From the NCBI RefSeq assembly GCF_963506605.1, contig NC_083283.1, positions 6,944,001 through 7,008,000 of the forward strand: DNA of 64,000 bases, read 5' to 3'. Under the pieces are notes generated by a model that ran no database searches, had not been told where the DNA came from, and worked only from the letters and a program-made list of their open reading frames with translations. This document shows positions 26,629 through 60,047 of this stretch, one piece after another. The position numbers and the translations under genes were made by a program. The stretch's first letter is position 1. Each line of letters opens with the position of its first letter. The stretch comes from Zootoca vivipara (Eukaryota).

Positions 26629-27609
26629 TTATGAAAGGTTCCTAAGTGGGTTCGAACAAGGAGGATCCGTTTCCTGTATGTCATTCTCCTCATTCAAAAC
26701 CCGCTGGAGGATGACCATTAGGCTCTCCCTAGATTGACCTCCCTTCTTCCTCCCAACCAGAAAATAGAGGAAGGGGTTCACACTGCTGTTGAGCGAGGCA
26801 CACAAGAATCCATAACGGAGTCGAACAGGAGAATCTGGGTCTACAAAGGATATAGCAAAAAAAATGGCATTGAGTGGGAAAGCAAGCATGAGGAAGAAGA
26901 GGAGTGTAACCAAAATCACCATTAAAAGCCTTCCCCGCTTACGCGGGTGTGCTTTAAAGCACACTTTTATGAAAAGGATCACAGTTGAAATTGTCATAAG
27001 TGGGAGGCAAAGCAGTCCAGTCAAGAAATATTGGCCTGTTCCTGACAAGCAATGTGGAAATTCGTAAATTTCTTCAAGAATGTTGAGGATTAGGCAGAGC
27101 AGACAGGAGAGGACCCATATGAGGGCACACACAGTGGTGGACAAATGTGTCGGCCGGACACACCGATACCAAATAGGGAAGAGGATAGACACACATCTGT
27201 CAATGCTGATGGCTGTCAGAAGAAGTTGCCCAGTGTTGTATGTGAAGTCTAAGAGACATTCAGCAATTCTGTCAAGAACATAATTAGAAGCTGGAATAAA
27301 ATCAAACAACTCTAGGCTCAGGAGGAATGCAAAGTCAGCCGCAGCCAAATTAAGGATGTAGGTGGTGAATGGTTTCCTCCTAATGCGGAAAACAAGAAGC
27401 CAGATGACAGTTCCATTCCCCAAAAATCCCATACAGCAGATAACTAAAATGAAGCCATATAGTATATATATTTCAAATCGGCCATCCTGGAAATCTCCTT
27501 GATCATGATATGAGCTATTATGAGTGCTGTTATACTCCTTATATGTCACAGCATCCACAGCAGATTGCAAAGTCCCATTGATATGTCTTTGCTTGCAGAA
27601 TGACTCCAT
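26629..27609 (-). CDS. MAS-related GPCR (MRGPR/MAS1-like), 326 aa, recent-paralog subgroup
   Basis: Intact ATG-to-TAA ORF with all family motifs (YILNLAAADF, SIDRC, FPIWYRC, NSSVNPFLYFLVG). Confidence 0.95.
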   Translation of the reverse strand: MESFCKQRHINGTLQSAVDAVTYKEYNSTHNSSYHDQGDFQDGRFEIYILYGFILVICCMGFLGNGTVIWLLVFRIRRKPFTTYILNLAAADFAFLLSLELFDFIPASNYVLDRIAECLLDFTYNTGQLLLTAISIDRCVSILFPIWYRCVRPTHLSTTVCALIWVLSCLLCLILNILEEIYEFPHCLSGTGQYFLTGLLCLPLMTISTVILFIKVCFKAHPRKRGRLLMVILVTLLFFLMLAFPLNAIFFAISFVDPDSPVRLRYGFLCASLNSSVNPFLYFLVGRKKGGQSRESLMVILQRVLNEENDIQETDPPCSNPLRNLS

Positions 27610-27649
27610 GTGGAATCCTTGTCTTCTCTTCAGGAGCAGAAGTTTCCTC

Positions 27650-28125
27650 TAGGTCTAGGAAATGGAAAGTGTCACAAAGAAGTTTGACTCAACAGGAATT
27701 TTGGTGAGACCCAGGAGCCCATTGAACCACACATACAACCACAACTTTTGTCTATCAAGTCAAAAGACATATTTGTACAATTCTCTGCAATATAACTGAA
27801 TCCTCCACATGGGACACACCCCTTTGCATGTTTTCTCATAAAGCTGTTTTTGTACTTTAGTTAGTTTACCAGGAAATTGCGTTTCATTGGTGCCAAGAGA
27901 AGAGGTCAGCACAGCATTCCCTGGTGTCCTTGCCCTATTGTCCAATTTGTAATGTCTCTCCAAAATTGGGATTCAATCATATTTCTTTTACTATGACCAG
28001 GCTCAACATTCCTGCCTAGGAAGAGATATCAGTAAGGATGAAGTAGATGGACTGAGGGAAAGATTGTTTAGGGAAAGATTGTTATAAAGTTTTATAGCAG
28101 TAAATTTCACTTACCTACTGTAAAT
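27650..28125 (-). other. Putative 5'UTR intron of the 26629 gene: acceptor ~27650, donor AG|GTAAGT ~28112; paralogous sites at 38878/39370, 49470/49952, 55149/56405
   Basis: Minus-strand TTTCCATTTCCTAG (or a 1-nt variant) just upstream of each ATG, and CAGTAG|GTAAGTG conserved in all four copies. The pairing of these sites is inferred. Confidence 0.55.
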
Positions 28126-28552
28126 CCATCCAGTTGGGACTATCTTCCAATTGAAAAGAGTCTAGGAATGAATGAGCGTGTGGAGGAGGTTCTGAAAGAG
28201 AGGTCAGGCAGTAATGTAACATTTTTTCTTATTACATATAACTCAGTGTTCTTTTTGTTGTTCAGTCCTAGGATTCTCCCCCAAATAGAGTAAGCTTTCT
28301 GATATGCCTTTATTGGCTCTCCCCTAACCAAGGAGGCTGTTTTTTGATGGATGAGAATTGAACAGGTGGGGGGGGTGGTGTTTACCCAAGTAGTAGTGGC
28401 TCCATTAAGAAACGATCAATCTTGATTGATAAACAAATGAACGGATTCCCTGCGCTGGACTTGCTTCACTTGAAATGACCCACTCTATTCTGCATTCCCT
28501 ATTAAGACACATTAATCTCATTGTGTCTGGATACAGTGTTTGTTCTCTGCCT

Positions 28553-28795
28553 CTTTTATTTTATTTTTTAAAAATATATTTATTGGTTTTTTTCTGACAA
28601 ACACAAAACTGACACACAAAAATTCAAAATAGCAAAAGAAAAAAGAAAAAACCACAGGAAATAGAAAAAATACAGAAAAACAAAACAATAAAAAAAGAAA
28701 TTATGATTTTATAAACTCATTTCATAACTCTACTTTGACTTCACCGTCCCTCCCTTTCCGAATAGTATCCCAATTCTTACACAGCTTTCAAATTA
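28553..28795 (-). mobile_element. LINE (L1-like) 3' tail insertion
   Basis: T-rich start; 13-bp TSD TTGTTCTCTGCCT; absent from paralogous sites at ~40485, ~51070 and ~57520. Confidence 0.75.
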
Positions 28796-29977
28796 TTGTT
28801 CTCTGCCTTTGGCAAAACCTCAGAAAGTGACCTTATACTGAGTCAGACTATTGGTCTATCAAGGTCAGGACTTGTCAAACAGACTCTCTGTGCCACTCAC
28901 TAGCATTTTCAAAAGTGGTCTTTCCAACCCTACCTGGAGGTGCTTGGGAATTAACCTTCTGCAAGCTCCGAAGATCCGGCCCACCTGTAAATGTTTCACC
29001 CAACTTTGCGACTGACTGCAGATCAGCAGTCTTCAGAGATGTTGAGTGCAACATAACAAGACACAGCATCTTGCCCTGGAATGGCAGGTCCTAAGGACTT
29101 AAACACAGAAAATATGGCCCCACTCATGCCCCATGGAGAAAATAAAATCTTACCAGTCTCACTCAAAGATGCAAACTGGTCCCTCCTGTTCTTCGTCAGG
29201 GCTTCATTTGATTCTATGCCTCATAGGACAAAAGGATGCTCTTTAATTGGATATGATGATAATTATCAGTTCACCAAGGAGGAGGAGACTATTGTCATTT
29301 ATGTCCCCAAAGGCTGCAGTCATGAAGATCAGATTTGTAATTGGTTCTGGAGGAAGCAGCTCATGTCTCATGTACTTCTTTATCTGTACCAGACAAATGG
29401 AGTAAATCAAGACCTCATCCCCACATTTCTAATCTAGGCTGTCTAAGCAAGATAACAACTTCCTGGCCTTTTAACGGCCAAAAGAATTTGTCCCCTATGT
29501 GTCCTTTATTAGATAGGGGAGTTGACTATTGGTGGTGAGACATGATTACCTAGGGTGGGAGGGGAGGTTGCTCTTGAGTAGGCCAACTAGGTGGAGGGGG
29601 GCAAGGAGTCAGAGCCATTGGCTGCGACTCATTGAAGGGAGCAGTTCCACCAGGTCATCCGTCATGCCCCCCTTAGTTGGAGGCAATTCCATGGTAACCA
29701 ATGTAACATTTATTTCATTCATTTATTTCAAAAAATATAAACACTGCTTGATTGTCAAAAAAAACAAAACAAAAACAAAACAAAAAACACCCCAAAGCAG
29801 CTTACAAATGAATAAACAGAAAAATCAAGAAAAAATCACAGCCATTCTTAAAAGCATGCAAAAGTTAAATTGCTGAAGCAGATTCAATATATGTTAAGTT
29901 TCTTTACATGACATATTGTGCTTACAGTAATATCTTTTGAACTCCAATTAACTTTAATATATATTTAATAGCTATAT

Positions 29978-30310
29978 GAAGCCATTAGATGCGGTCATTA
30001 GTTTTGGAGCACGGTATTAGCAGTGTGATGATGTTGACACACAGCTTTCCCTTTCTATAACATAGGAATCGGGAGAGGCTGTGGAAGCTTTGAACCTGTG
30101 TCTGGATGCAGTAGTGGTCTGGATGAGGGCTGATCAACTGTGTGTGAATTCTAGGAAGATGGGAGCTCTTTGAATGGGGGTTCCCCATGTTTTGGAAATT
30201 GGCAAGTTCCCTGTTCTGAGTGGGGTTGCACTCCCTTTGAAAGAGCAAGTATGAAGCAAGATGTATTTCTGGATACATCTCTGTCACTAGATACTCAGAT
30301 GCCTTCTGTG
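29978..30310 (+). mobile_element. Old degenerate L2 RT fragment, co-duplicated (also ~32740-33260, 41657-42430, 52233-52970, 58883-59890)
   Basis: Translation at 52233, MKPLDVVIRSSGARHQQCDDVDTQLSLS..EAVKALNQCLDAVVVWMRA, parallels MQPLGEIIRGFGLGVHQYVDDTQLYLS..AVKVLCECLEAVGGWMAA in the L2 ORF. Confidence 0.8.
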
Positions 30311-30864
30311 TCCCCCATTCACAACCCTGGATTATATTTTGGTTGACACGTGCCAGGACCTTTGTAAATGACGAGATGTGAAAACGATGCTTGGACTTAA
30401 AATGAGTTGAAGATCTGCAAATTGGTGTCTGTTACTATATATAGGAATCCCCCAAAGCATGAGCTCCTTTACATCTGAGGCATAGTGGTGTTGTACCTAT
30501 CACTTCAAAGAGTTAGGCAAGTTCCATTGATTCAGGGCCCCAGAGTAGTTAATTCCCTGCTTGTAGTCATTCCTTGCAGGTACATTAACACTGCAATCCA
30601 AACCCAAGATCTGTGGAGATTAAGAAGTTTAAAATTTTATTTCATTCATTTTAATTTTTTCACATTTTTCAAACAATCCATCAATCTTGATTGATAAACA
30701 AATGAACAGATATCTGCTCCCTTCGTATTGCCTTATCCCAATACTTCACTGATCAATCATAGGTGAATTCCCTGCCCTGGACTTGGTTCACTTGAAATGA
30801 CCCAGTCTATTCTGCAGTCCCTGTTAAGACACATTAATCTCATTGTGTCTGGATACAGTGTTTG

Positions 30865-31384
30865 TATTAGGAAATAATATTGGGGGAAACTGGGTATTAA
30901 GAGTACTAACATAAATCATATACCCCAGTTTCACAGTGGCCCTTCAAAGTACGCTTCACGAGTTTAAAAAAACACCCCAAAATCACAAACAATAGTTGAC
31001 TTGGCTAAATTACACCACCAAGAGTTTAAAGACCAACCTAGCATGAAACCCCTAACTAGCAGTATACCTGTTTAAAGTACACAGAAGAAAAACAAAAGGT
31101 TGGCTTTCTTTAACAGAAAAACAAACTGACTCGGACGAGACTTTAAAGATAAACGCTCTCTCCCAGCAACCTTACATACCCACATTCCAACCCTACAAAC
31201 CTCCCACCATACTCCCATACAACTACCACACAAAATGCTTTCCAACAGAGCCTTATATACATGGAGTAGAGCCCACACCTGTGAGCAATTAAACAGAAAT
31301 TACCAGCACATGTTTTTTCTTAAACAGACAGTATTGACATTGGACTGGCTCAAAAGCACCTTTGATTATTCAAGAAACCCAACA
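30865..31384. mobile_element. Solo LTR (520 bp)
   Basis: Termini T(A)TTAGG...CCCAACA (TG..CA with one mutation); 5-bp TSD GTTTG; TATATAAG on the minus strand at ~31252; absent from paralogous sites. Confidence 0.75.
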
Positions 31385-33450
31385 GTTTGTTTTCTCCTTT
31401 GGCAAAACCTCAGAAAGTGACCTTATACTGAGTCAGACTATTGGTCTATCAAGGTCAGGACTTGTCAAACAGACTCTCTGTGCCACTCACTAGCATTTTC
31501 AAAAGTGGTTTTTCCAACCCTACCTGGAGGTGCTTGGGAATTAACCGTCTTCAAGCACCACAGCTCCAGCCTCTCCTGTAAATGTTTCACGAAACCTTCT
31601 GACTAACGGCATCTAACTAATCAGCAGTCTTCAGAGATGGTGAGTGCAAGAGAACAAGGACACAGCATCTTGCACTGGAATGACAGGTCCTAAGGACTTA
31701 AGAGGAAAAAATGTGGTCCCACTCATGCCCCATGGAGAACATGTAAAATCTTACCAGTCTCACTCAAAGATGCAAACCGGTCCCTCCTGTTCTTCGTCTG
31801 GACTCAATTTGATTCTATGCCTCATAGGACAAGAAGATGCTCTTTAATTGGATATGAAGATAATTATCAGTTCACCAAGGAGGTGGAGACTATTGTCATT
31901 TATGTCCCCAAAGGCTACAGTCATGAAGACCAGGTTTGCAATTGGTTCTAGAGGAAACAGCTCATGTCTCGTGTACTTCTTTATCTGTACCAGACAAATG
32001 GAATAAATGAAGACCTCATCCCCATATTTCTAATCTAGACTGTCTAAGCAAGATAACAACTTCCTGGTCTTTCAATGGCTACAAGCACTTGTCCCGTATG
32101 GGTCTTTTCTTGGGTGGGAGAAGTGTCTATTGGTGGGGAGACATGATTACCAAGGGCGGTAGGTTATGCAAAGTAGGTGGAGAGGGCAAGCATTCAGAGT
32201 CATTTGCTGTGACTCGTGGAAAGGAGCAGGTCCACCAGGTCATTCTTCTCCTCCCCACCCTCATCCCCTACCAATTCCATGGTAACCCCCTGTCTCTCAC
32301 TCTAATTGTCACAACCACCATGTTCGACTTTTTCTGCCTCTCTCTGACCATCACTCCTCTATATCTCTATGGTAAACCCCTGGGCTGAGCCTCAAAACCA
32401 GGTAGGCTCTGCCTCTGAGCTTTCTCATTGGTCAAACTGCATTAACCATTTCCATCACAAGGGATGGGCAAATGCAACATCCGTGTCACATTAATTTCTT
32501 TTCACTTATTTCATAAAATTTTTATACTGCTTGATTTTTTAAAAAAGAAAAAGCACCCCAAAGCAGCTTACAGATGAATAAACAGAAAAATCCAGAAAAA
32601 TCACAACTATACTTTCATACATGAAAAGTTAAAATGCTGAAGCAGATCGAATATATGTTAAGCTTCTTTACATGACATATTGTGCTTACAGTATTACCAT
32701 TTGAACTCCAATTAACATCAAAATCTATTTAATATCTATATGAAGCCATTGGATGTGGTTATTGGGAGTTTTGGAGTACGGTATCAGCAGTGTGATGATG
32801 TTGACACGCAGCTTTCCCTTTCCATAACAGAGGAATCGGGAGAGGCTGTGAAAGCCTTTAACCTTTTGTCTGGATGCAGTAGTGGTCTGGATGAGGGGTA
32901 ATAAACTGTGTTTGAATTCAAGGAAGATGGGAGCTCTTTGAATGGGGGTTCCCCGTGTTTTGGAAATTGGGAAGTTCCCTGTTCTGAGTGGGGTTGCACT
33001 CCCTTTGAAGGAGCGAGTGTGAAGTTTGGGGGTACCTCTAGATAAATCTTTGTCGCTATATGCTCTGTTGTCTTCTGTGTCTCTGAGAGCCTTTCACCAG
33101 CTATGGCAATTCCTGGACGGGGATAGCATGACCCTGCAGACCAGGCATTGGTAACCTCGTGGCTAGATTACTGTGATATGCTTGATGTGGGGCTGCTCCT
33201 GGGTCTGGTTTGGAAGTTCCAGCAGATGCAGAATGCTGCTGCCAGATTGCTGATGGGAGCTTCTCGTCGATTCCTGCAATGCAGGGGCTTGGAGTAGATG
33301 ATCCTTGTGTTCCTTTTCAACTCTACAATTCTATGATTTTATGATGTATTCTACAATACTTGTAAAAACACACAACTCACTTATTGACTCTGGATTCCAT
33401 GTTCTCTCTCCTCGCCCCTCTCTCCCCTAAGAATCTGCCTTAAACTGAGT

Positions 33451-33507
33451 TGGCAGGGGGTTGGACTGGATGGCCCTTGTGGCCTCTTCCAACTCTATGA
33501 TTCTATG
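33451..33507 (+). mobile_element. CR1 3' tail fragment (shared with 42619-42675, absent at 24640)
   Basis: GGGGGTTGGACTGGATGGCCCTTGTGG..CCAACTCTATGATTCTATGA matches the CR1 end at 37360-37418. Confidence 0.8.
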
Positions 33508-33932
33508 AGTCTGATCCTTGGTTCTATCTAGCTCAGTATTGGTCACACTGGCTACCAGACACTCCTAGGGATTTCAAAGTAGGTTGTCTCTGATCCCAGC
33601 AGGAGACTAAAATGGAGACATTTCATATGCAAAGCACATGCTCTGCACTGGGCCATTTCTCCATACGTCTTTTTCCATGCATGGATGTAATCTGCTCCCT
33701 CACTAAGCTTCACCCAACCACCCAGAAGGTAGTTATTTTACAACTTGTTGACCAAGTATGGATTGGGAGTCAACAGATATGGTGATCAGAAGACAACAGG
33801 GACAAAATATCCTGCAACAGAATGGTAGGTACCAAGGTTTTAGAGAGGCAAGGTGGTACCAATCGTTCTTCAAAGAAAAGTGGAAAATCTTACCAATTTC
33901 ATGCCGATCCCTACCATTCTTTGTCTTGGCTT

Positions 33933-34037
33933 GAGGGGGAATCCCAAGATGGCAGAGTATCAACATCCTCCCTTCTGACCCCCTTACTTTACTGGTCTGT
34001 TTTTAAGGTGTTTTTTTTTTTTTACTGCTTTATACCA
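33933..34037 (+). mobile_element. Short retro-insertion with ~19-bp TSD
   Basis: CCATTCTTTG(T/C)CTTGGCTT is duplicated on both sides; the insert is absent from paralogs at 25055 and 43090. Confidence 0.7.
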
Positions 34038-35402
34038 CCCATTCTTTGCCTTGGCTTAATCAGTTTCCCTGCCTCATGTGGCAAGATCCTGTTCTTTTAG
34101 TGGTCATGGGGATAAATACCATCTGGCCTAGGAGGAGGAGACACTTGTCATTTAAAGTTCTATGTCCCCAAATGCTAGTTTGTAATGGGTTGTGAAGGGG
34201 AAACTGAACACATGTCTCATGTGCTTCTTTATCTGTAACGGACAAATAAAACATCTCAGGACCTGTCATGATAACAGATAAAACCATCCTGGCTCTTTAA
34301 CGGCAAAAAACATTTGTCCAGTATTGGACATTATGTAGGGAGGGGGTGAGCACAGAAGGGGAAAATAAGAATTTCCAAGATGTCCTGCTGTTTCTTCCCT
34401 GTGTAAAACCATAGGTGAGAAGTGGAGTGGGATGCAAGAGCAGTTGGTTCTTAAGGATGTTAAAATGAGGTTGTTTTTTTAAATTGTAAAATAGATAATT
34501 TAATAAAAAATTATAAAAAGACTCCTTTATTTCTATCTACAGGTGAATGGGCCATGAGAGGTACAGTTCTTTTCTATCTACATGCCCCTGAAGCTTACCT
34601 TAACTTAAGCTGCCTGTCCTCCTTAAAAAGGGGTTGGGTAAGGCAGACACCCAAGATATATGCCAATACAATGTGTTCTTTTCTAAAATGAAAATTTATT
34701 AAGAAATTTCATAATATGATAAAAAACAAACTATTCTAATAAAAAAGAAAAGAAACAAGGGGAGAGAAAGAGATAGTACAATGCAATGTCCTGTCTCACA
34801 AATGTATCACAACTATTATACCATACAGGGGAAAACTGCCCCCCCAACTTTTACCTGGGAGTTTGTCTCACCCTGGGAGATCTCCCCTTCCCTACATTTC
34901 ACTCAGGGCCCTTCACCAGATGTCCATCAATCTCATCTGCATGCAATTATTTCCTAAACACAGAACTCAGCCATGCAGTTGCAAATAAAACATTTTATGT
35001 GAATTTTACGTGCAATATACAAAGTGATAATAGGTGGTGATGGTGAGTCTTGTGGAAAATTCAATGTATTTTCAAAAATGCTTTTTAAAAAAAGCATTTT
35101 AGGAATGGTTTTTATTTATGTACATGACAACAAGAGAAAGCTGATCTAAACACACACAAAAACAAGGGGGGGGGGAGAAAATACCATGCATCATAATATA
35201 TATGTCAGCAGTTAATACAAGTGCTTGCCTCAATATAGTATCATTCTTTGCTTGTTTATTGAACACAAATATAGACTGATTTTTAAGAAACCAACTCTTC
35301 AGATAGCATTGTACAAGCACAAAATGACAACCATCAAAAATACAAAGCAGGTGGGTTTTATATATTAAAAGATAGGCATCCAAAATTCCTACTAGTCATA
35401 TC

Positions 35403-35433
<31 letters not shown>

Positions 35434-35446
35434 ACACACTATGAAT

Positions 35447-35478
<32 letters not shown>
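35403..35478. repeat. (AT)n and (TG)n microsatellites
   Basis: Direct reading. Confidence 0.9.
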
Positions 35479-35479
<1 letters not shown>

Positions 35480-35980
35480 TCTTAAGGACATGCTTAAATC
35501 CCCAAAACAATGGAACTTGCCTGTTCTCACAGAGAATTGAATTCAGAAACTCCTGGAATCATACACTCATAGAATTGTGGAGTTGGAAGGGGCATCCAGG
35601 GGAATCTGATCCAACCTCCTGCAATGCAGGAATCTCAAATAAAACACCACAAGGTTGTTTAATCTTACATGGAATTAAATTCTGCAAATGTGGCCTTTTT
35701 ATCTCCTATGATTGCTGGCAGGGACCTAAGTAGAGTCTCTGAATTAAATCATAAGGTGCAGGTGATCTCACAGGAGTGAAGGCAGTCCTTGAAATACCCT
35801 ATTTCCAGCACTTCCAAGTAGACTTTGGTTTGCTGTAAAAAGTGGTGCACCTGGTACAGTATAGTTAAATGGTGTGGAGCCTCTTTCAGCCAAAGGGCTT
35901 CATTTCTTCGTAGCCAACATTTCAGGGGCTGTATACAATAAGTGGGTGAGGCACAGAAGAAAAATTGAGATAACAAAAGA

Positions 35981-37418: not shown

Positions 37419-37540
37419 ACTCCTCCCATTGTAAAGTAGGATACATGTCAGCTACACAAACCCCAAAATTTTCAAAAAAACGAAACAAAAAAGAACCAGC
37501 CTCTTTTTCTGGGACACATTACACCCATACCAAAAAACTA

Positions 37541-37552
37541 TTATGAAAGGTT
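37541..37552 (-). pseudogene. Remnant (last codons plus stop) of a deleted MRGPR gene
   Basis: The 3' flank at 35560-35980 and 37420-37540 matches the 3' flank of the 48429 gene and ends in TTATGAAAGGTT, identical to the CDS end at 48429-48440. The sequence then jumps to the 3' flank of the next gene type. Confidence 0.75.
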
Positions 37553-37850: not shown

Positions 37851-38837
37851 TTATGAAAGGTTCCTAAGTGGCTTTGAACAAGGAGGATCCATTTCCTGTC
37901 GGTCATTCTCCTCCTCATTCAGAACCCGCTGGAGGATGACCATTAGGCTCTCCCTAGATCGACCTCCCTTCTTCCTCCCAACCAGAAAATAGAGCAAGGG
38001 GTTCACACTGCTATTGAGGGAGGCACACAAGAAGCCATAATGGCCTGGAACATGAATATCCAGGCCTACAATTTCCAGGAAAAGAAGGGCATTGCATGGA
38101 ATAGCAAGCATGAGGAAGAAGAAGAGTTTAAGTAAAATAACTATTAAAAACCTTCCCCGCTTTCGTCGGTGTGATTTTAAACAGACTTTGATGAAAAGGA
38201 TCACAGTTGAAATTGTCATGAGTGGGAGGCAAAGCAGTCCAGTGAACACAAATTGAAAAAATTCTATGTTATATGGTGTGTTGAAATATTTTTGTTCGAG
38301 AATGTAGACGATTAGGCAGAGCAGACAGGAGAGGACCCATAGGAGGGCACACACAGGGGTGGACAAATATGTCGGCCGGATACACCGATACCAAATAGGG
38401 AACAGAACAGACACACATCTGTCAATGCTGATGGCTGTCAGAAGAAGTTGTCCAATGTTGTATGTGAAGAATAAGAGACGAAAAGCAATAGCATAATGAA
38501 ATCTATTTAAATTAAGAGAATTATAGAACTCTAGGCTCAGGAGGAATGCAAAGTCAGCAACAGCCAAATTAAGGATGTAGGTGGTGAATGGTTTCCTCCT
38601 AATGCGGAAACCAAGAAGCCAGATAACAATTCCATTCCCCAAAAATCCCACACAGCAGATAACTAAAATGAAGCCATATATTATAGATATAATAGATATT
38701 TCAAATGGGTTATAGTGGGAATGTCCTTGATCATTATATGAGCTAATATAAGTGTCGTTATACTCATTATATGTCACAGCGTCCGCAGCAGATTGCAAAG
38801 TCCCATTGATATGTCTTTCCATGCTGAATGACTGCAT
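37851..38837 (-). CDS. MAS-related GPCR (MRGPR/MAS1-like), 328 aa, recent-paralog subgroup
   Basis: Intact ORF with family motifs. The second ATG (MERHING) is an alternative start. Confidence 0.95.
   Translation of the reverse strand: MQSFSMERHINGTLQSAADAVTYNEYNDTYISSYNDQGHSHYNPFEISIISIIYGFILVICCVGFLGNGIVIWLLGFRIRRKPFTTYILNLAVADFAFLLSLEFYNSLNLNRFHYAIAFRLLFFTYNIGQLLLTAISIDRCVSVLFPIWYRCIRPTYLSTPVCALLWVLSCLLCLIVYILEQKYFNTPYNIEFFQFVFTGLLCLPLMTISTVILFIKVCLKSHRRKRGRFLIVILLKLFFFLMLAIPCNALLFLEIVGLDIHVPGHYGFLCASLNSSVNPLLYFLVGRKKGGRSRESLMVILQRVLNEEENDRQEMDPPCSKPLRNLS

Positions 38838-45038: not shown

Positions 45039-45041
<3 letters not shown>

Positions 45042-45096
<55 letters not shown>
45042..45096. 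repeat. (AT)n(AG)n microsatellite
   Basis: Direct reading. Confidence 0.95.
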
Positions 45097-45102
<6 letters not shown>

Positions 45103-47845
45103 ACTTCAAAAAATTCTAATGGATAAAAGAGTGCTTTTAAATTATAATGTTACCAAACAAGAAGTGGAAGAGGCAATAAAGCAAATGACAATAGGAAAAG
45201 CACCGGGTCCAGATGGCTTAACGGCAAAGTATTATAAGATCCTAAAAGACTGGTTAGTTGAACCATTCACTGATTTGTGCAACAAGATTTTAGGAGGGGG
45301 CAAGGCACCAGAGACTTGGTAAGAGGCATATATAACATTGATATTAAAACCAGACACAGACAGATTGCATATGACGAATTACCGACCGATATCATTATTA
45401 AATGTGGATTACAAAATTTTTGCTAATATTTTGGCATAAAGATTAAAGAGATTATTAAGGGATTTGATCCATAAAGATCAGGCCAGGTTTTTGCCCAGCA
45501 GACACTTGAAGGACAATATTAGAAACATTGTGGATATTTTAGAAATGCTGGAGGAAAAGAAGAACATGAGTGCAGCTTTAATTTTTGTGGATGCCGAAAA
45601 AGCTTTGGATAACATTTCTTGGAGATTCATGATACGTAATTTAGAGAAAATGGAAGTTGGGAGGGAGTTTATAAATGGTTTGTCAGCTATATATGTAGAC
45701 CAAAAAGCAAAGATTATTGTTAATAGGGTGATATCAGAAGATATTCGAATAGAAAAAGGAACTAGACAAGGATGCCCACTCTCCCCTTTGTTATTCACTA
45801 CAGTTCTGGAGGTTTTACTAGACAGGATCAGGAAGGAGAAAGAGGTCTCGGGGGTCAAAGTGGGAAAGAAACAATATAAGTTGAAAGCTTTTGCAGATGA
45901 TCTAGTTTTGACAGTTCAGGAACCGGACACTAGTATTCCTAATGTATTAGAGATTATACAGGAGTTTGGACAGCTGGCAGGCTTCAAATTAAATAAAATG
46001 AAAACCAAAGTTTTGAGTAAAAATTTAACACCGGAAGAGATAAGTCAGCTACAAGAGACCACGGGATTGACATTTGTGAAAAAGGTTAAATATCTAGGGG
46101 TAAATGTGTCAGACAAAAATATACAGTTATTTAAAAACAATTATGAGAAGTTGTGGAATGAGGTGAAGAGAGACTTGGAAACTTGGTCAAGATTGAAATT
46201 GTCATTGTTAGGGCGCATTTCAGTTATAAAAATGAATGTATTGTCAAAAATGTTGTTTATGTTTCAAGCATTGCCAATTGTAGAGAAACAGGCATGTTTT
46301 AAAGAATGGCAAAAAACCTTATCAAGATTTATCTGGCAGGGGAAGAAGCCTAGAATTAGATATAAGTTATTGACTGATGTTAAAGAAAGAGGGGGATTCT
46401 TCCTGCTCTTTCTTTAACATTTTTAACATCTTTAACTCTTAAAGTTATATTTTGAGGCAGCGGCCTTTTGCTGGATGAAAGAATGGTTCACACTTGATAA
46501 TACAGATGTTTTAGATCTGGAAGGGTATGACAATGCATTTGGGTGGCACGCTTATTTATGGTATAACAAAGTTAAAGTACATAATCGATTTAAATGTCAT
46601 ATTATAAGAAAGTCATTGTTTAATGTTTGGACTAGATATAAAGATCTTCTAGAAAGAAAAACACCTAGATGGTTATCACCACTGGAAGCAAAGGTTAATA
46701 AAAAAATTAATATGCAAGATAAATGGATAAGATATAAAGATATGTTGATAGAAGAAAATGATCAGGTGAAGTTAAAGCCTTATGAGCAGATGAAAGATCA
46801 ATTGAGTGGTTGGTTGCAGTATTGTCAGATTAATGAGTTATTCAAAATGGATAAAAAAATTGGTTTTCAAATTGAAAAATCAAAGTTGGAAACAGAATTA
46901 ATTGAACCAAAAGTTAAAAATCTTGCAAGAATGTATAAGTTACTGTTGGAATGGCATACGAAAGATGAGCCAACAAAATCAATGATGATAGATTGGGCAA
47001 AGGATATAGGACATAATATAATGTTGGAAGATTGGGAAAGGTTATGGAATTGTAACATGAATTTTACTGCTTCTAGTTTGTTAAAAGAAAATTTGTATAA
47101 GATGATGTATAGATGATATCTTATGCCAGTGAAACTGGCAAGGATATATCATAATAAAGATAATAAATGTTGGAAATGTAAAGAAACAGAAGGGACCTTT
47201 TACCAAATGTGGTGGACTTGTCCCCGAGTAAAGAGCTTCTGGGACAAGATTTATAATGAGTTGAAGAAAGTGTTTAAAAACACGTTTGTTAAAAACCCGG
47301 AGGCCTTTTTACTTGGAACTACAAGGAAAGAATTGCCAAAGAAAGATATTACTTTTTTTCTGTATGCCACAGCAGCAGCTAGAATTGTATTAGCAAGGAA
47401 TTGGAGAGTTGAAGAATTATCTACAGTGGACAACTGGCAGATGAAGCTGATAGATTTTATGGAGCTGTCTGAATTAACTGCGAGAGTCCGAGATCGGGGA
47501 GAGGAGACGGTGGAAGAAGATTGGAAGAAATTTAAGATATATAAGATTAAGAATGGACAATAAGGGAAGGGGTTATACAAAGATGCTGAAGAAGTGCAAA
47601 GACTTTGTAAGACGGATTTAAGTGTTAAATGTAAATTAATTAGTGAATACATTCTTTATAAGTAAATTAGAAAAAGAATTGGATTAAGAAGTAGAGAGTG
47701 CAGTAATACATATAATTAGAAACGTGGAAAGGGGGGGAAGGAGGAAGTCGACAGTGTTAGATTTATATTGGGTAAAATGATAAAGAATTGTTTTCTTGTT
47801 TTTGTTTTGTATTTTTGTCTTGTTTTTAATTTTGTAAGTTTTCCC
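45097..47845 (+). mobile_element. L1-clade LINE, 5'-truncated ORF2 (RT plus C-terminal zinc knuckle), inactivated by stops
   Basis: GKAPGPDG, YRPISLLNVDYKIFA, VDAEKALD, KGTRQGCPLSPLLF, AFADDL, KYLGVN, CWKC..GT..MWWTC; several in-frame stops. Confidence 0.93.
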
Positions 47846-48428
47846 CCTGGAATCATACACTCATAAAATTGTGGAGTTGGAAGGCGCATCCAGGGGCATC
47901 TGATCCAACCTCCTGCAATGTAGGAATCTCAACTAAAGCACCACAAGGTTGTTTAATCTTACATGGAATTAACTTCTGCAAATGTGGCCTTTTTATCTCC
48001 TATGATTGCTGGCAGCACCTAAGTAGAGTCTCTGAATTAAATCATAAGGTGCAGGTGATCTCACAGGAGTGAAGGCAGTCCTTGAAATACCCTATTTCCA
48101 GCACTTCCAAGTAGACTTTGGTTTGCTGTAAAAAGTGGTGCACCTGGTATAGTATAGTTAAATGGTGTGGAGCCTCTTTCAGCCAAAGGGCTTCATTTCT
48201 TCGTAGCCAACATTTCAGGGGCTGTATACAATAAGTGGGTGAGGCACAGAAGAAAAATTGAGATAACAAAAGACATGACCCCTCCCTTTCTTTTGGGAGA
48301 AGCAAAAAGGTGACTACTCCCTTTCTAAAGTAGGATACATTTCAGCTACACAAACCCCAAAATTTTTAAAAACTACAACAACCCAGCCTGTTTTTCTGGG
48401 ACACATTACAGCCAGACCAAAAAAACTC

Positions 48429-49415
48429 TTATGAAAGGTTCCTAAGTGGGTTGGAACAAGGAGGGTCCATTTCCTGTCTGTCATTCTCCTCCTCATTCAA
48501 AACCCGCTGGAGGATGACCATTAGGCTCTCCCGAGATCGACCTCCCTTCTTCCTCCCAACCAGAAAATAGAGGAAGGGGTTCACACTGCTGTTGAGCGAG
48601 GCACACAAAGCGGCATAATGGAATCGAACGGGAATTTTCAGGCCAACAATTAAACTATCGAGAAGAATGGCATTGAGTGGAAAAGCAAGCATGAGGAAGA
48701 AGAAGAGTGTGAGTAAAATAACTATTAAAAGCCTTCCCTGCTTTCGTGGGTGTGATTTAAAACAGACTTTGATGAAAAGGATCACAGTTGAAATTGTCAT
48801 GAGTGGGAGGCAAACCAGTCCAGTAATGAGAAATTGGAAAAATTCTCTGGGGATACGAAGAAAGATGGTATTTGATCTAAGGAAAGATGTTTCTTTGAGA
48901 ATGTAGAGGACTATGGAGAGCAGACAGGAGAGGACCCATATGAGGGCACACACAGTGGTGGACAAGTGTGTTGGCCGGACACACCGATGCCAAATAGGGA
49001 AGAGGACAGACACACATCTGTCAATGCTGATGGCTGTCAGGAGAAGTTGTCCAGTGTTGTATGTGAAGGCTAAGAGATAAACAGCAATTCTATAAGGAAA
49101 AGAATCAGTAAACTCAATAGAATAAAATAACTCTAGGCTCAGGAGGAATGCAAAGTCAGCAACAGACAAATTAAGGATGTAGGGGGTAAACGGTTTCCTC
49201 CTAATGCGGAAACCAAGAAGCCAGATGACAATTCCATTCCCCAAAAATCCCATACAACAGATGACTAAAATGAAGCCATATATTATAGATCCTTCAAATG
49301 GGTTGTATTGGGAATATCCTTGGTCATTATATGAGCTATTATAAGTTTCATCATACTTGTTATCTGTCACAGCATCAGCAGCAGATTGCAAAGTCCCATT
49401 GATATGTCTTTCCAT
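48429..49415 (-). CDS. MAS-related GPCR (MRGPR/MAS1-like), 328 aa, recent-paralog subgroup
   Basis: Intact ORF MERHING...PLRNLS* with family motifs. Confidence 0.95.
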   Translation of the reverse strand: MERHINGTLQSAADAVTDNKYDETYNSSYNDQGYSQYNPFEGSIIYGFILVICCMGFLGNGIVIWLLGFRIRRKPFTPYILNLSVADFAFLLSLELFYSIEFTDSFPYRIAVYLLAFTYNTGQLLLTAISIDRCVSVLFPIWHRCVRPTHLSTTVCALIWVLSCLLSIVLYILKETSFLRSNTIFLRIPREFFQFLITGLVCLPLMTISTVILFIKVCFKSHPRKQGRLLIVILLTLFFFLMLAFPLNAILLDSLIVGLKIPVRFHYAALCASLNSSVNPFLYFLVGRKKGGRSRESLMVILQRVLNEEENDRQEMDPPCSNPLRNLS

Positions 49416-52400
49416 GCTGAATGACTGTATGTGGAAATCTTGTCTCCGCTTCTGGAGCAGAAGTTTCCTCTAGGAAATAGAAAGTAGCACAAATAAGATT
49501 GACTCAACAGGAATTCTGCGCAAAACAGAGAATGGTGAGACCCAGGAGCCCATTGAACCACACATACACTCACAACTTTTGTCTATCAAGCCAAAAGTCA
49601 AATAGGTGTAATTTTCTGCAATATTATTGAATCCTCCACATGGGCCACACCCCTCTGGATTTCTTCTCATAAAGCTGTTTTTGTTCTTTAATGAGTTAGT
49701 TTACCAGGAAACTGAGATTCACTGGTGGCAAGAGAAGAGGTCGGCACAGCATTCCCTGGTCCTCTTGCCCTATTGTCCAATTTGTAAAGTCTCTCCAAAA
49801 TTGGGATTCAATCATATTTCTTTTACTATGACCAGGCTCAACATTCATGCCTAGGAAGAGATATCAGTAAGGATGAAGGAGATGGACAGAGACAGAGTGA
49901 GAAGGACTCCACCTTGTTTAGGGAAAGTTTGTTACAAAGTTAAGTTCACTTACCTACTGCATATGAATCCAGGTAGGACTATCTTCCATTGCTAAAAGAG
50001 CAGGCTAGGAATGAATGAGGGTGTGCAGGAATTTCTGAAAGAGAGATGAAGCAGTAATGTAACGTGGGTTTTTTTTTTATTACATATAACTCAGTGTTCT
50101 TTTTGTTGTTCAGTTCCTAGGATTCTCACCAAAATAGAACAAGCTTTCTGATATGTCTATATTGGCTTCCCCCTAACCAAGGAGGATGTGTTTGATGCAT
50201 GGGAAGCAAACATGTGGGGGAGAGCAGGTGTTTACCCACGTAGTAGTGGCACCTTTAGGAAGCAACCATGCTTGATTGATAAACAAATGAGCAGATTCTC
50301 CTGGTGGTGGTGATGACAGAATGTTTACCTTACTCTCCCCTCCAAATGCCCCAGCCATTTTCCTAGTGCAAGGAAACTGAGCATTAGCACTTGGGCTGTT
50401 GCTTTAGCTGTAGTTGAGAGCTGGTGGCATCACACTTCCCTGACTTTCAGCCTGGCCCTAATCCAGACAGCTGTTTACATCTACTTACACAATGTATGTA
50501 GTCTCATACACAACATGCTGTGAAGACTTAGCAGTCCTCTTTGCCTACCAGGTTTTCCTCTTCTGTAGTCCTGAGTTTGATGGGGACATTTCCAAGTGCT
50601 TGCAAGAAACCCAAGTAGCTAATGTGGAGACCTCTGATGATGGGGTAGGGATGTAATTAGCCTTCACTTCATTTCCTTACGACCAAGAGTAAGGAAAGTG
50701 CTCTTCTGGCATTCTGAGTGTTGACTCAATGAGTGACTTATAGAAAGGGGAGAAACGAACTCTTCAGTGGGATGATTATGGTTCTGTAGCTTCATTCTAA
50801 GCTTCAGTCACTCACAGAACAGAGAAAGGGATTAAAGAATGAAAGAGAGTATATATGTTTATATATTAAGCGGAATCCCATCATTGTGTTTGCTTCTAGG
50901 AACATGGATATCTGCTCCCTTCGCATTGCCTTAATAATATCAACTTTCCCAAGACTTCACTGCTCAATCATAGGTGAATTCCCTGCCCTGGACTTGGTTC
51001 ACTTGATATGACCCAGTCTATTCTGCGTACCTGTTAAAATACATTAATCTCATTGTGTCTGGACACAAGGTTTGTTCTCTCTCTTGGCAAAACCTCAGGA
51101 AGTGACCTTATACTGAGTCAGACTATTGGTCTATCATGAGCAGGATTTGTCAAACAGACTCTCAGTGCCACTCTCTAGCATTTTAAAAAAAGTGGTCTTT
51201 CCACCCCTACCTGGAGGTGCTTGGGAATTAACCTTCTGCAAACACCGCTGCTCCAGCCTCTCCTGTAAATGTTTCACCCAACCTTCTGACTAACTGCAGA
51301 TCAGCAGTCTTCAGAGATGGTGACTGCAAAAGAACAAGGACACAGCATCTTGAAGTGGTCCTAATGACTTAAGAGAAAAAAATGTGGCCCCACTCATGCC
51401 CCATGGAAAAAATCTTAAATCTTACCAGTCTCTCTCAAAGATGCAAACCAGTCCCTCCTGTTCTTTGTCTGGAGTCAATTTGATTCTATGCCTCATAGGA
51501 CAAGAGGATGCTCTTAAATTGGATATGAAGATAATTATCAGTTCACCAAGGAGGTGGAGACTATTGTCATTTATGTCCCAAAAGGCTACAGTCATGAAGA
51601 CCAGGTTTGTAATTGGTTCTGGAGGAAGCAGCTCATGTCTCACGTACTTCTTTATCTGTACCAGACAAATGGAGTAAATCAAGACCTCATCCCCACATTT
51701 CTAATCTAGGCTGTCTAAGGAAGATAACAACTTCCTGGCCTTTTAACGGCCAAAAGCAGTTGTCCCCTATATGTCTTTTATTTGGTGGGGGAGTTGAGTA
51801 TTGTTGGGGAGACATGATTACCTAGGGTGGGAGGGGAGGTTGCTCTTGAGTAGGTTAACTAGGTGGAGGGGGCAAGGAGTCAGAGCCATTGGCTGTAACT
51901 CGTGGAAGGGAGCAGTTCCACCAGGTCATCCGTCATGCCCCCCTTCATTGGAGGCAATTCCATGGTAACCAATGTAACATTTATTTCTTTTCATTTATTT
52001 CATAAAATCTATACACTCCTTGATTGTCAAACAAAAACAAAAAAACACCCCAAATCAGCTTACAAACAAATAAACAGAAAAATCAAGAAAAATCACAACC
52101 ATACTTTAAAACATGCAAAAGTTAAAATACTGAAACAGATTGAACATATGTTAAGCTTCTTTACATGATATATTGTGCTTACAGTATTATCATTTGAACT
52201 CCGATTACCTTTAATATCTATTTAATATCTATATGAAGCCATTAGATGTGGTCATTAGGAGTTCTGGAGCACGGCATCAGCAATGTGATGATGTTGACAC
52301 ACAGCTTTCCCTTTCCATAACAGAGGAATCAGGAGAGGCTGTGAAAGCTTTGAACCAGTGTCTGGATGCAGTAGTGGTCTGGATGAGGGCTGATCAACTG

Positions 52401-52489
52401 TTTTTGAATTCGAGGAAGATGGGAGCTCTTTGGATGGGGGTCCCCATGTTTTGGAAATTGGGAAGTTCCCTGTTCTGAGTGGGGTTGTA

Positions 52490-52892
52490 TAGTGATACCT
52501 CAGGGTAAGTACTTAATTGGTTCCGGAAGTCCCTACTTAACCTGAAGCGTACTTAACCTGAAGCAAAATTTCCCCTTGAAAGTAATGGAAAGTGGATTAA
52601 TCCATTCCAGACGATGAAAAACACCCCCTAAAACAGCAATTTAACATGAATTTTACTGTCTAATGGGACCATTGATCAATAAAATGAAGGCAATAATCAA
52701 TGTACAGTGATACCTCAGGTTAAGTACTTAATTGGTTCCGGAAGTCCATACTTAACCTGAAGCATACTAAACCTGAAGCGAACTTTCCCATTGAACGTAA
52801 TGGAAAGTAGATTAATCCATTCCAGACGGGTCTGCGGAGTACTTAACTTTAAAGTGCTCAACCTGAAGCGTACTTAACCCAAGGTAGGACAG
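52490..52892. mobile_element. Tigger/mariner-type MITE with a duplicated left part
   Basis: (C/T)AGTGATACCTCAGG..AAGTACTTAATTGGTTCCGGAAG occurs at 52490 and 52705; flanked by TA; empty site at ~30229. Confidence 0.82.
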
Positions 52893-54089
52893 TACTCCCT
52901 TTGAAAGAGCAAGTATGAAGTTTGGGGGTATTTCTGGATACATCTCTGTCACTAGGTGCTCAGATGTCCTCTGTGTCCCCCATTCGCAACCCTGGATCAT
53001 ATTTTGGTTGACACTTGCGCCAGGAGCTTTGTAGATGATGAGATGTGAAAACAATGCTTGGACTTAAAATGAGCAATGTTTATTTAACACTGTTAAAGGT
53101 AACAGTTACTATATATAGGAATTCCCAACAGCACAAGCTCCTTTACATCTGAGTTATTGCGGTGTTGTACCTATCACTTCAAATTGTTGGGCAAGTTCCA
53201 TTGACTCAGGGCCACAGAGTAGTTAATTCTCTGCTCATAGCCATTCCTTGCAGGTACATTAACACTGCAATCCAAACCCAAGATCTGTCAAGATTAAGGA
53301 GTTTAAAATTTCATCTCATTCATTTTATTTTTTTCTCATTTTTCCATACAAAAATGCATGTCCAAAGTGGCTTTCAACCACAAAAAACAGGGGTGCATTT
53401 CACACAAACACTACAAAAACAATTTCATAATAACAAAATAACAAAAACATAGCAATAATTTCACATTAAGATAGCAAAACAAAAACATAGTAACATAAAA
53501 TAAACCACATTTCAATAGTATAACAAGGTCACTTAAACAGCATGTAGCATCCAAGAGCAAAAACAGCAAGGGAGCTTCCCGGTAACTCTCTCATTCAAGG
53601 GGATAGTTTTTACAACCATGTGACTAAGGTTGGATCAGCAATCTTCAGATTTGGTGAGCAGAAGACAAGGGCAGCATGCTGAGATGGCAGGTGCTAAGGA
53701 TTTGGGGGGGGGGGATTGTGACACAAGTTGTGTCCCAAAGAAGATTACACAACATTTCTATTCACAGTCCAAGTTGTACAGATTGTTCCACCTGATCTTT
53801 GCCTTGACTAGTTCAGCTTGTGCAATATAGGTACACAGTGTGGAGCATTTTTTTTAGCCGCAGGGCTTCATATCTTCATGGCCAATATTTCAGGGGCTAT
53901 ATACTGTAGGTGGGTGGGCCAAAGAAGAAAAATTGGGAGAACCAAAAAGGTGACTACTCCCTTTCTAAAGTAGGATACATTTCAGCTGCACAAACCCCAA
54001 AATTTTCAACACAACCCAAGCCTCTTTTTCTGCTGAGCATGAGTCATCAATGCAGTCCAAGGACACATTACAGTCAGACCAAAAAACTC

Positions 54090-55109
54090 TTATGAAAGGT
54101 TCCTAAGTGGGTTGGAACAAGGAGGGTCCATTTCCTGTCTGTCATTCTCCTCCTCATTCAAAACCCGCTGGAGGATGACCATTAGGCTCTCCCTAGATCG
54201 ACCTCCCTTCTTCCTCCCCACCAGAAAATAGAGGAAGGGGTTCACACTGCTGTTGAGCGAGGCACACAAGAAGCCATAATGGAGTTGAATGGGAATATTC
54301 AGGCCAATAAATCCACCAAGAAGAAAGGCATTGAGTGGGAAAGCAAGCATGAGGAAGAAGAGGAGTGTAAGTAAAATAACTATTAAAAGCCTTCCCCGCT
54401 TTCGCGGGTGTGATTTAAAACAGACTTTGATGAAAAGGATCACAGTTGAAATTGTCATGAGTGGGAGGCAAAGCAGTCCAGTCAAGAGAAATTGAAAATA
54501 TGCTATGAGGATATAAAGAAAGGTGTTATCTGATATACGGAAATATGTTTCTTGGAGAATGTAGACGATTAGGCAGAGCAGACAGGAGAGGACCCATATG
54601 AGGGCACACACAGTGGTGGACAAATGTGTCGGCCGGGCACACCGATGCCAGATAGGGAAGAGGACAGACACACATCTGTCAATGCTGATGGCTGTCAGAA
54701 GAAGTTGCCCAGTGTTGTATGTGGAGGCAAAGAGACAAAGAACAATCCTATAAAATTGTAGCAATCCTACAAATTCAGTATACTCAATAGAATAAAAGAA
54801 CTCTAGGCTCAGGAGGAATGCAAAGTCTGCAACAGCCAAATTAAGGATGTAGGTGGTGAATGGTTTCCTCCTAATGTGGAAACCAAGAAGCCAGATGACA
54901 ATTCCATTCCCCAAAAATCCCACACAGCAGATAACTAAAATGAAGCCATATATTATAGATATAATAGATATTTCAAATGGGTTATAGTGGGAATGTCCTT
55001 GATCATTATATGAGCTATTATAAGTGCCGTTATACTCCTTATATGTCACAGCATCCGCAGCAGATTGCAAAGTCCCATTGATATGTCTTTCCATGCTGAA
55101 TGACTGCAT
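54090..55109 (-). CDS. MAS-related GPCR (MRGPR/MAS1-like), 339 aa, recent-paralog subgroup
   Basis: First ATG at 55109 (MQSFSMERHING); the track's 55139 start is non-ATG. All family motifs present. Confidence 0.95.
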   Translation of the reverse strand: MQSFSMERHINGTLQSAADAVTYKEYNGTYNSSYNDQGHSHYNPFEISIISIIYGFILVICCVGFLGNGIVIWLLGFHIRRKPFTTYILNLAVADFAFLLSLEFFYSIEYTEFVGLLQFYRIVLCLFASTYNTGQLLLTAISIDRCVSVLFPIWHRCARPTHLSTTVCALIWVLSCLLCLIVYILQETYFRISDNTFLYILIAYFQFLLTGLLCLPLMTISTVILFIKVCFKSHPRKRGRLLIVILLTLLFFLMLAFPLNAFLLGGFIGLNIPIQLHYGFLCASLNSSVNPFLYFLVGRKKGGRSRESLMVILQRVLNEEENDRQEMDPPCSNPLRNLS

Positions 55110-59911: not shown

Positions 59912-60047
59912 CAGGCATCCCCAAACTTTGGTCCTCCAGATGTTTTGGACTACAATTCCCATCATCCCTGACCACTGGTCCTCTTAGCTAGGGATCTTGG
60001 GAGTTGGAGACCAAAACATCTGGAGGGCTGCAGTTTGGGGATGCCTG
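59912..60047. mobile_element. hAT MITE
   Basis: TIR CAGGCATCCCCAAACT; perfect TSD GTCTAGGA. Confidence 0.93.

Follow-up and report, generated by a model that had tools for sequence, protein, structure and literature searches.

A 64-kb stretch of the Zootoca vivipara genome (contig NC_083283.1, positions 6,944,001 to 7,008,000 of the forward strand; G000:C8:6944001-7008000, hereafter the window, with its first letter as position 1) carries four intact open reading frames (ORFs) for MAS-related receptors of the G-protein-coupled type (GPCRs), named Z1-Z4, all on the minus strand. A fifth close paralog, Z5 (G000:C8:7020693-7021682), lies 21 kb beyond the window, and a neighbouring gene, Z0, serves as an internal control. 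In three extracellular-side segments of Z1-Z5, amino-acid changes and in-frame length changes outpace the neutral rate, a conclusion held with high confidence, and the segments have likely been exchanged between copies by recombination. Taken as a whole, the reading that these five tandem receptors had their pocket segments diversified by selection, likely swapped them, and most likely detect foreign molecules on behalf of immune cells has about an even chance of being right; its selection part, taken alone, is very probable.

Divergent segments and shared frame

Segment 1 was defined as the top of transmembrane helix (TM) 2, extracellular loop (ECL) 1 and the top of TM3; segment 2 as the top of TM4, ECL2 and the top of TM5; and segment 3 as the top of TM6, ECL3 and the top of TM7 (Table 1). 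Mean amino-acid identity over the 10 pairs of Z1-Z5 was 34% for ECL1, 44% for ECL2 and 39% for ECL3, against 87-92% for the four frame segments. Per segment and pair, nucleotides differed by 0.16-0.56 across the three segments and by 0.02-0.14 across the frame; the segment differences were 0.35, 0.40 and 0.22 at first, second and third codon positions. Every coding indel among the paralogs comprised whole codons.

A preliminary description of this DNA had proposed four young paralogs with in-frame indels, diverging in exactly three CDR-like (complementarity-determining-region-like) loops on an invariant scaffold. Z1-Z4 were found in place and intact, the starts of 12/12 quoted segments were recovered in the translations, and the whole-codon indels agreed with it; the number of copies is five, the additional one being Z5. 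The three segments stood out from the frame as described, and the N-terminal tail proved to be a fourth variable part (76% identity over 10 pairs, with indels, and 3/16 of the top selected sites). The scaffold was not invariant, with a frame dN/dS (ratio of nonsynonymous to synonymous substitution rates) of 0.41-0.57. For scale, Z0 is 96-97% identical between genera and the frames of Z1-Z5 within this one genome are 90.5% identical. Contigs from two other DNA runs (X15 and X17, one of which may be the assembly's own source) were letter-identical to the assembly over Z3 ECL3 and Z4 ECL2 (2/6 segments; 16 pieces listed).

Tests for positive selection

Codon models (GY94, F3x4) were written in Python and not taken from PAML. 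Model M2a was favoured over M1a on 15/15 topologies (twice the log-likelihood difference, 2dL, 83-92), with omega 7.4-8.0 at ~15% of sites. The comparison of M8 with M8a that had been proposed as a check favoured M8 (2dL 86.6 for all columns, 74.8 for gap-free columns and 39.2 with 3 codons masked around gaps; 37.0 without Z1 and 21.5 for Z3-Z5), with a statistic that older neutral loops inflate. Sixteen sites had a naive posterior >0.95, of which the three segments hold 13, the N-terminal tail 3 and the frame none. Because of the inflation, site models are not decisive alone, and since they were insufficient a partition test was used in which the extracellular half, delimited by helix numbering (2.57-3.33, 4.57-5.43 and 6.52-7.39), was fitted with its own branch lengths.

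Across the five genes the extracellular half had a dN/dS of 2.1-2.4, which rose to 3.5-4.0 in Z2-Z5 and to 4.3-4.7 in Z3-Z5 (all p between 1.9e-3 and 3.7e-6); p stayed <=1.0e-3 when 3 codons were masked around gaps. Tree lengths for Z2-Z5 were dS 0.21-0.27 in the extracellular half vs 0.17 in the frame, and dN 0.84-0.93 vs 0.083. The ECL1 segment alone gave the strongest signal (p 1.7e-3 to 2e-7; dS 0.01-0.32, dN 1.1-1.8). Tree-free Fisher tests were significant for 6/6 pairs of Z2-Z5 (p 0.0004-0.006). Neutral simulations on mosaic trees reached the observed statistic in 0/60 cases; with double-base changes added, it was reached in 0/60 at 9% and in 1/60 at 23%. Local hypermutation was rejected, dS not being raised in Z2-Z5.

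In-frame indels also exceeded expectation, with 4-5 events in ~200 bases of segment against 0.15-0.61 expected from 2.6-2.8 kb of well-aligned flank blocks, in which the count may be low (Poisson p <=0.004); against flank indels of any length, p was just 0.01-0.12. The Z2-Z5 frame contained no indels. ECL2 of Z2 was likely shortened anew through an 18-base deletion, and inspection by eye gave no support for the 18-base ECL2 insertion having arisen by tandem duplication. The four-codon ECL1 insertion of Z4 (in 54723-54800) contains an 8-base repeat, 19 bases apart, which suggests a duplication plus a deletion that jointly kept the frame.

The upstream flanks were copied together with the genes and differ by a Kimura two-parameter (K2P) distance of 0.065-0.119 over 2.9-3.8 kb (all 10 pairs), less than the segments do. 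With dN/dS >1 in the segments, the diversifying selection put forward earlier is upheld on both the codon and the flank comparison. Z0 provides the control: its loops are 91-98% identical to those of one-to-one relatives in Lacerta and Podarcis, so loop regions are not inherently free to change. No one-to-one orthologues with the same loops were found for Z1-Z5, whose best cross-genus segment identity was <=70% vs 91-95% for Z0. Four other young sub-clades of the cluster were fitted; one group of six genes (L039-L041, L049; G000:C8:6828151-6851055 and 6927843-6928781) showed the same pattern, with an extracellular dN/dS of 3.2 (p 3e-5) and a frame value of 0.37, and three showed no excess (dN/dS 0.65-1.06).

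Mosaicism and loop types across lizards

Adjacent informative sites were concordant beyond shuffling in the coding sequence (CDS; 32 sites, p 0.002), among non-loop coding sites (20 sites, p 0.003) and upstream (69 sites, p 0.00025). Between Z2 and Z4 the difference is 3% in the N-terminal tail and 24-35% in the segments. With Z1 included, dS was 0.68-0.98 in ECL2 and ECL3 vs 0.23 in the frame; the ECL2 and ECL3 of Z1 look older than its frame, or misaligned.

Comparison between species was confined to protein sequences, from 21 young genes. Omitted were two models that look chimeric or truncated (P0017 and P0018) and two near-duplicates (P0122 and P0124); Lacerta row P0020 was present in the trees and absent from the identity tables; and approximately unbiased (AU) tests excluded four rows of the older Podarcis assembly. 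Short and long ECL2 types both occur in all three genera (Zootoca, Lacerta and Podarcis). Grouping the five Zootoca genes as one clade was rejected by the segments (AU p 0.0008) but not by the frame (p 0.38); for the Podarcis genes the segments gave p 0.058. Of 60 protein triplets from one Podarcis muralis assembly, 7 were mosaic after Bonferroni correction (P0011, for example, tracks P0008 through ECL2 and P0009 in ECL3), mosaics that may also be assembly chimeras. Together these results make exchange of segments between copies by recombination likely. The preliminary description mentions neither such recombination, which inflates the site-model test that it had proposed, nor the missing TM4-TM5 cysteine pair described below.

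The two Podarcis muralis assemblies (P0005-P0014, P0121 and P0123) have few close counterparts in common, and P0007 and P0008, two versions of one accession, are just 50-75% identical in the segments. The mismatch could be haplotype diversity or a difference in assembly.

Receptor family and predicted pocket

Z1 and Z4 both matched PF00001 above cut-off. MAS1 and the MRGPRs scored 123-185 bits by sequence, against <=80 for other class A receptors, and 202-267 by profile, against <=130; MAS1 was the best sequence match (185 bits), MRGPRX receptors scored 123-150 bits, and the next-closest families were C5aR, C3aR and FPR. The branch was supported at 100/100 against four outgroup receptors. An AlphaFold model of Z4 (102-row alignment) had seven helices and helix 8, with a predicted local distance difference test score of 83 overall and 83-94 in the segments. 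Its top 27 fold matches were all MAS1 or MRGPR structures, with MAS1 at rank 1. In the model, 55/67 residues of the three segments are helical and the true loops have 4, 3 and 5 residues. The variable segments are thus predicted to be helix tops lining the ligand pocket, and the earlier likening of them to CDR loops does not fit the modelled structure.

Selected columns were 2.64, 2.65, 3.26, 3.29, 4.64, 5.37, 5.38, 6.57 and 6.58, and, more weakly, 3.33, 7.35 and 7.39; their facing the pocket was judged from helix numbering. In a structural study, ligand contacts of MRGPRX1 and MRGPRX2 lie at 3.29, 4.60, 5.36, 5.38 and 6.59, and the absence of Cys at 3.25 with a small residue in place of Trp6.48, that is, a shallow pocket, are given as MAS-related marks (10.1101/2022.12.21.521535). 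Both marks are present: position 3.25 is D, Y, Y, Y and F in Z1-Z5, so that the canonical TM3-ECL2 disulfide is absent, and the toggle Trp6.48 is replaced by Ala, as it is by A, G or S in 157/165 relatives. Selection on the extracellular pocket is itself already known from human MRGPRX, where it is reported at 3.29, 2.56 and 2.60 (PMC3221663). Primate MRGPRX1-4 and rodent MrgprA/B/C thus share with Z1-Z5 the fold, both marks, tandem paralogs and selection at the top of TM2 and TM3, including 3.29. Z1-Z5 differ from MRGPRX in their independent expansion, in lacking the C4.64-C5.32 disulfide and the conserved acidic pair (L or V at 4.60; T, F or Y at 5.38), and in carrying in-frame length changes in all three segments. 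Net charge of the segments ranges from -7 to +4, 17/21 young copies being net negative and most being acidic and aromatic-rich; a single ligand class is unlikely given this range.

The TM4-TM5 cysteine pair

In MRGPRX a TM4-TM5 disulfide (C4.64-C5.32) stands in for the canonical one, according to the same structural study (10.1101/2022.12.21.521535), and human MAS1 and MRGPRD have two cysteines at the TM4-TM5 sites. A survey of 165 of 179 receptor proteins (250-400 amino acids, in sets chosen by likeness to the queries) found the pair in 16/16 turtle and bird proteins and in 2/149 squamate proteins, 125 of which had no cysteine there. Of the two squamate carriers, one, a gecko, looks like a true pair. 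Tree rows with the pair were amphibian, crocodilian, mammalian MRGPRH-like, turtle and bird MRGPRH-like and one basal gecko; ratite and boa Mas-like rows were also without it. The pair is absent from Z0-Z5, and 4.64, a cysteine in MRGPRX, is a selected column in Z1-Z5. There is an even chance that loss of the pair permitted the variation of the segments. It was not sufficient, as the pairless Z0 is conserved and three pairless sub-clades show no dN/dS excess.

Phylogenetic placement and reports on relatives

The squamate cluster (support 100/99) was sister to 8/9 turtle and bird MRGPRH-like rows (96/91). Mas-like squamate genes, including a cluster of this genome on contig C3, formed a clade separate from the Z1-Z5 group; three mammalian MRGPRH-like rows formed their own clade on an unresolved fork, and MRGPRX, D, E, F and G were absent from the tree. 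Z1-Z5 are MAS-related family members of a sauropsid MRGPRH-like clade, neither MRGPRX nor MAS1. The tree supports the independent squamate expansion proposed earlier. Membership of the mammalian itch and pain group was not borne out, its structural marks, the TM4-TM5 disulfide and the acidic anchors, being absent.

In published reports, avian MRGPRH is one of 13 genes that endotoxin had induced in chicken macrophages at 1 h (PMC3091694), and it is up by log2 7.2 in infected duck spleen (PMC11123779) and by ~log2 4 in Mycoplasma-infected chickens (PMC10215417); a marsupial MRGPRH-like gene is given as a mast-cell marker (PMC12002115). The relatives carry the database names MRGPRH-like and proto-oncogene Mas-like; local duplication in this sauropsid group and a reptile cluster were already noted, without analysis in the passage concerned (PMC6504862), and a passage of another source lists the mammalian subfamilies only (PMC11910321). 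Relative to that sauropsid group, the Z1-Z5 clade is lacertid-only, and the cysteine pair retained in turtles and birds is missing from squamate members. The literature searched, which left most subscription journals outside, yielded no study of selection, recombination, structure or disulfides in reptile MRGPRs. Two raw RNA runs labelled as the same species (~6% of each) gave depth 0 over the Z3 CDS and <=0.14 in one Z4 bin; their tissue labels are coded, and the low depth was weighed neither way.

Proposed explanation and its alternatives

Unequal crossing-over or gene conversion would start in the near-identical helices, keeping the frames alike while recombining the three pocket segments, and selection would retain differing segment types; this sequence of steps is considered probable. 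Loss of the disulfide may have freed the tops of TM4 and TM5 for changes in length and sequence, a step with an even chance. The copies are predicted, with fair assurance, to bind differing ligands and to signal via a common inner face. The cells may be myeloid or mast cells and the ligands may come from microbes or parasites, a step given slightly less than an even chance. Sensing by immune cells is favoured because the squamate cluster is sister to the bird MRGPRH-like genes, which are reported as infection-induced. A bolder version is rather doubtful: that in squamates a GPCR of the bird type, induced by infection, became a combinatorial germline recognition repertoire resembling that of the MHC, with disulfide loss unlocking the pocket, helices as crossover sites, and parasite-driven balancing selection keeping modules across genera and differing between individuals.

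MHC, KIR and plant NLR genes form recombining clusters with diversifying selection on the binding surface and with types common to several species. Z1-Z5 resemble them in the selected binding surface, the likely exchange of segments among paralogs and the cross-species types; in the lizard cluster each unit is one single-exon GPCR, with helix tops as its modules. Antibody CDRs are likewise three variable stretches on a conserved frame that make one binding face, whereas the segments of Z1-Z5 are predicted to be helical, not beta-sandwich loops, and stand in germline copies; there was no sign of somatic rearrangement, looked for only through the two other DNA runs, and the unraised synonymous rate in the Z2-Z5 segments speaks indirectly to hypermutation.

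A number of results weigh against selection, exchange, the part given to disulfide loss or immune sensing. In 27 null simulations (9 each), the M8/M8a statistic was inflated by neutral loops that differed from a mosaic frame just in being older: 2dL reached up to 25 for loops 3x older and up to 41 for loops 5x older, against 75.6 observed on gap-free columns and 39 after masking. ECL2 alone was marginal (p 0.046-0.28), ECL3 alone was never significant (p 0.26-0.69), two Z1 pairs tested were not significant (Fisher p 0.13 and 0.20), and the alignment of Z1 ECL2 is ambiguous. As for exchange, 5 synonymous informative sites showed no clustering (p 0.70), mosaic protein triplets numbered 0/30 in Zootoca and 0/12 in Lacerta after correction, and the frame tree rejected none of three groupings (AU p 0.28-0.38), by which homogenisation of the frame is suggested, not shown. 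Three other young sub-clades without the cysteine pair show no dN/dS excess, and the conserved Z0 is also pairless. A crocodile MRGPRH-like gene fell ~twofold after double-stranded RNA (PMC5702629), and the published MRGPRH genes are tied to the squamate-sister clade by name alone.

One alternative is that there is no positive selection, the segments being unconstrained and simply older than a conversion-overwritten frame, or changed by multi-base mutation. That account would suit the high ECL2 and ECL3 dS in comparisons with Z1, the inflation of site models by older neutral loops, and a compound event of the kind hinted at by the repeat in the ECL1 insertion of Z4; heavy double-base mutation, besides its single match to the observed value, passed p 0.05 in 16-23/60 simulations. 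It is opposed by the segment dS of Z2-Z5, which is close to frame dS with dN tenfold higher, by the low dS and high dN of segment 1, by the excess of differences at first and second codon positions, and by the conserved loops of Z0. It is largely refuted in segment 1 and in all three segments taken jointly, though not in ECL3 alone, and overall it is the least probable of the alternatives weighed.

The other alternatives accept selection and differ in what drives it. Reptile defensins are many and fast-evolving, and the receptors might track the lizard's own defence peptides (defensins, cathelicidins), with selection and shuffling unchanged. Solved MRGPRX structures hold host peptides (PAMP-12, cortistatin-14, substance P and BAM8-22), and the prevailing acidic, aromatic-rich segments fit cationic peptides; the pair of acidic residues by which MRGPRX holds cationic ligands (4.60 and 5.36/5.38) is not kept, and loop types that span genera and differ between two Podarcis muralis assemblies would better suit an outside antagonist, so that this explanation is judged unlikely. 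Quite unlikely is a role, as in mammals, as itch or pain receptors of sensory neurons for irritants, bites or venoms, the leading analogy of the preliminary description: the nearest solved relatives do include MRGPRD, X1 and X4, and 3.29 is selected both here and in human MRGPRX, but MAS1 outscores every MRGPRX, the sister group is the bird and turtle MRGPRH-like one with its myeloid reports, and the marsupial relative is a mast-cell marker. C5aR, C3aR and FPR, the next-closest families, are docking sites for bacterial proteins, and the selected sites include exposed ECL1 and N-terminal-tail positions; change might accordingly dodge pathogen proteins that dock on the outer receptor face, without altering sensing. 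Escape alone would be expected to spare the presumed pocket-facing columns 3.29, 3.33, 5.38, 7.35 and 7.39, which change radically, and it is held to be improbable. Marginally less probable again is a chemosensory role in the vomeronasal organ or tongue, tuned to pheromones or prey cues. Tandem expansion with pocket diversification is typical of chemoreceptor families, and rodent FPRs have been co-opted into the vomeronasal organ; no result here tied this clade to olfactory tissue, and the bird reports are immune ones. Selected pockets in immune-cell sensors of foreign molecules remain the preferred reading, at the strength given at the outset.

Locus and neighbouring genes

The receptor tandem array spans C8 6.763-7.028 Mb and holds 29 receptor ORFs of >=230 amino acids, one of which diverges past TM5, plus several broken pieces. 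Z1-Z5 are monophyletic (support 100/99) with Z0 as sister (99/99) in a cluster tree that contained one non-GPCR row and was used solely for clade support. Identity outside Lacertidae was <=54% among the 120 listed of 267 matches to the clade. Z3 starts 5 codons later because ATA stands where the other copies have their first ATG. A splice acceptor likely lies before each ATG, 39 bases ahead of that of Z4 by its sequence pattern; no spliced read was seen there. Coordinates are collected in Table 1.

Table 1. Receptor genes, variable segments and other features of the window, with positions counted from its first letter
Feature	Position	Strand	Remarks
Older cluster member, 5' part	1..720	-	extends 245 bases past window start
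Older cluster member, 323 aa	13886..14857	-	38% identity to Z1
Z0	22587..23546	-	sister gene of young clade; one-to-one counterparts in Lacerta and Podarcis, conserved also in the loops; internal control
Z1	26629..27609	-	intact 326-aa MAS-related GPCR; short ECL2 type
Z1 segment 3	26812..26865	-	
Z1 segment 2	27028..27081	-	
Z1 segment 1	27244..27309	-	
Z2	37851..38837	-	intact 328-aa paralog; N-terminus near-identical to Z4
Z2 segment 3	38037..38087	-	
Z2 segment 2	38250..38303	-	
Z2 segment 1	38466..38528	-	
Z3	48429..49415	-	intact 328-aa paralog; long ECL2
Z3 segment 3	48615..48668	-	spanned by run X15 contig, no difference
Z3 segment 2	48831..48902	-	
Z3 segment 1	49065..49130	-	
Z4	54090..55109	-	intact 339-aa paralog; long ECL2, 4-codon ECL1 insertion; copy used for structure model
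Z4 segment 3	54276..54326	-	
Z4 segment 2	54489..54560	-	spanned by run X17 contig, no difference
Z4 segment 1	54723..54800	-	
Z4 upstream region	55110..59100	-	copied together with every paralog; blocks at Z1, Z2, Z3 and Z5 are 85-95% identical
Dispersed repeat, 750 bases, in Z4 upstream region	~55422-56170		
Older cluster member, 329 aa	61249..62238	-	43% identity to Z1; close copy adjoins Z5

Z4 with the gene at 61249 (window 54090-62238) and Z5 with the gene at 7026565 (G000:C8:7020693-7027554) look like one duplicated two-gene block; the upstream K2P is 0.065 and the partner genes are 91-95% identical, yet the segments differ at 16-33% of bases. Elsewhere in the array, L035-L037 (G000:C8:6787440-6809294) are three near-identical copies, 95% identical in the segments, with listed ORFs that begin inside TM1; this is a very recent duplication whose loops have not yet diverged. 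A lone divergent MAS-related ORF with altered helix motifs (L069; G000:C8:26483076-26483969) lies 19 Mb off the cluster, and the separate Mas-like cluster on C3 has seven genes (L062-L068; G000:C3:67590474-67651470), with the TM4-TM5 cysteine pair in 7/7.

Retroelement remnants stand between genes at window 17905-19206 (-), 45545-47116 (+) and 60157-60747 (+); they comprise two ORFs for reverse transcriptase and one weak match to GIY-YIG. Apart from GPCRs, the 145/209 flank ORFs scanned matched a VWA exon, a retroelement and, once, ALKBH8_N. The VWA-domain exon (L057:1228-1881 (+), G000:C8:7069228), ~40 kb past the cluster, presumably resembles collagen XXII. At the other cluster end, a 330-amino-acid ORF without a Pfam or reliable Atlas match (L031:5652-6644 (+), G000:C8:6749652) is probably a long exon of the adjoining gene. 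Atlas searches put a name on neither cluster neighbour.

Significance

Selection on the pocket was to be expected from mammalian MRGPRs, which limits the surprise; the copies resemble the mammalian expansions in their selected pocket and shared frame, and add likely segment shuffling and the lack of an extracellular disulfide. Most of a large squamate clade does without the disulfide that is described as conserved in structures of MRGPRX, which shows it to be dispensable there. The conserved Z0 beside the diversifying Z1-Z5 is a built-in control, and the natural chimeras offer a direct test of the modularity of a GPCR pocket. Few fast-evolving receptors have been identified in the innate immunity of reptiles, and the Z1-Z5 cluster is a concrete candidate; if the proposed reading is true, lizards would have a changing sensor repertoire, directed most likely at foreign molecules.

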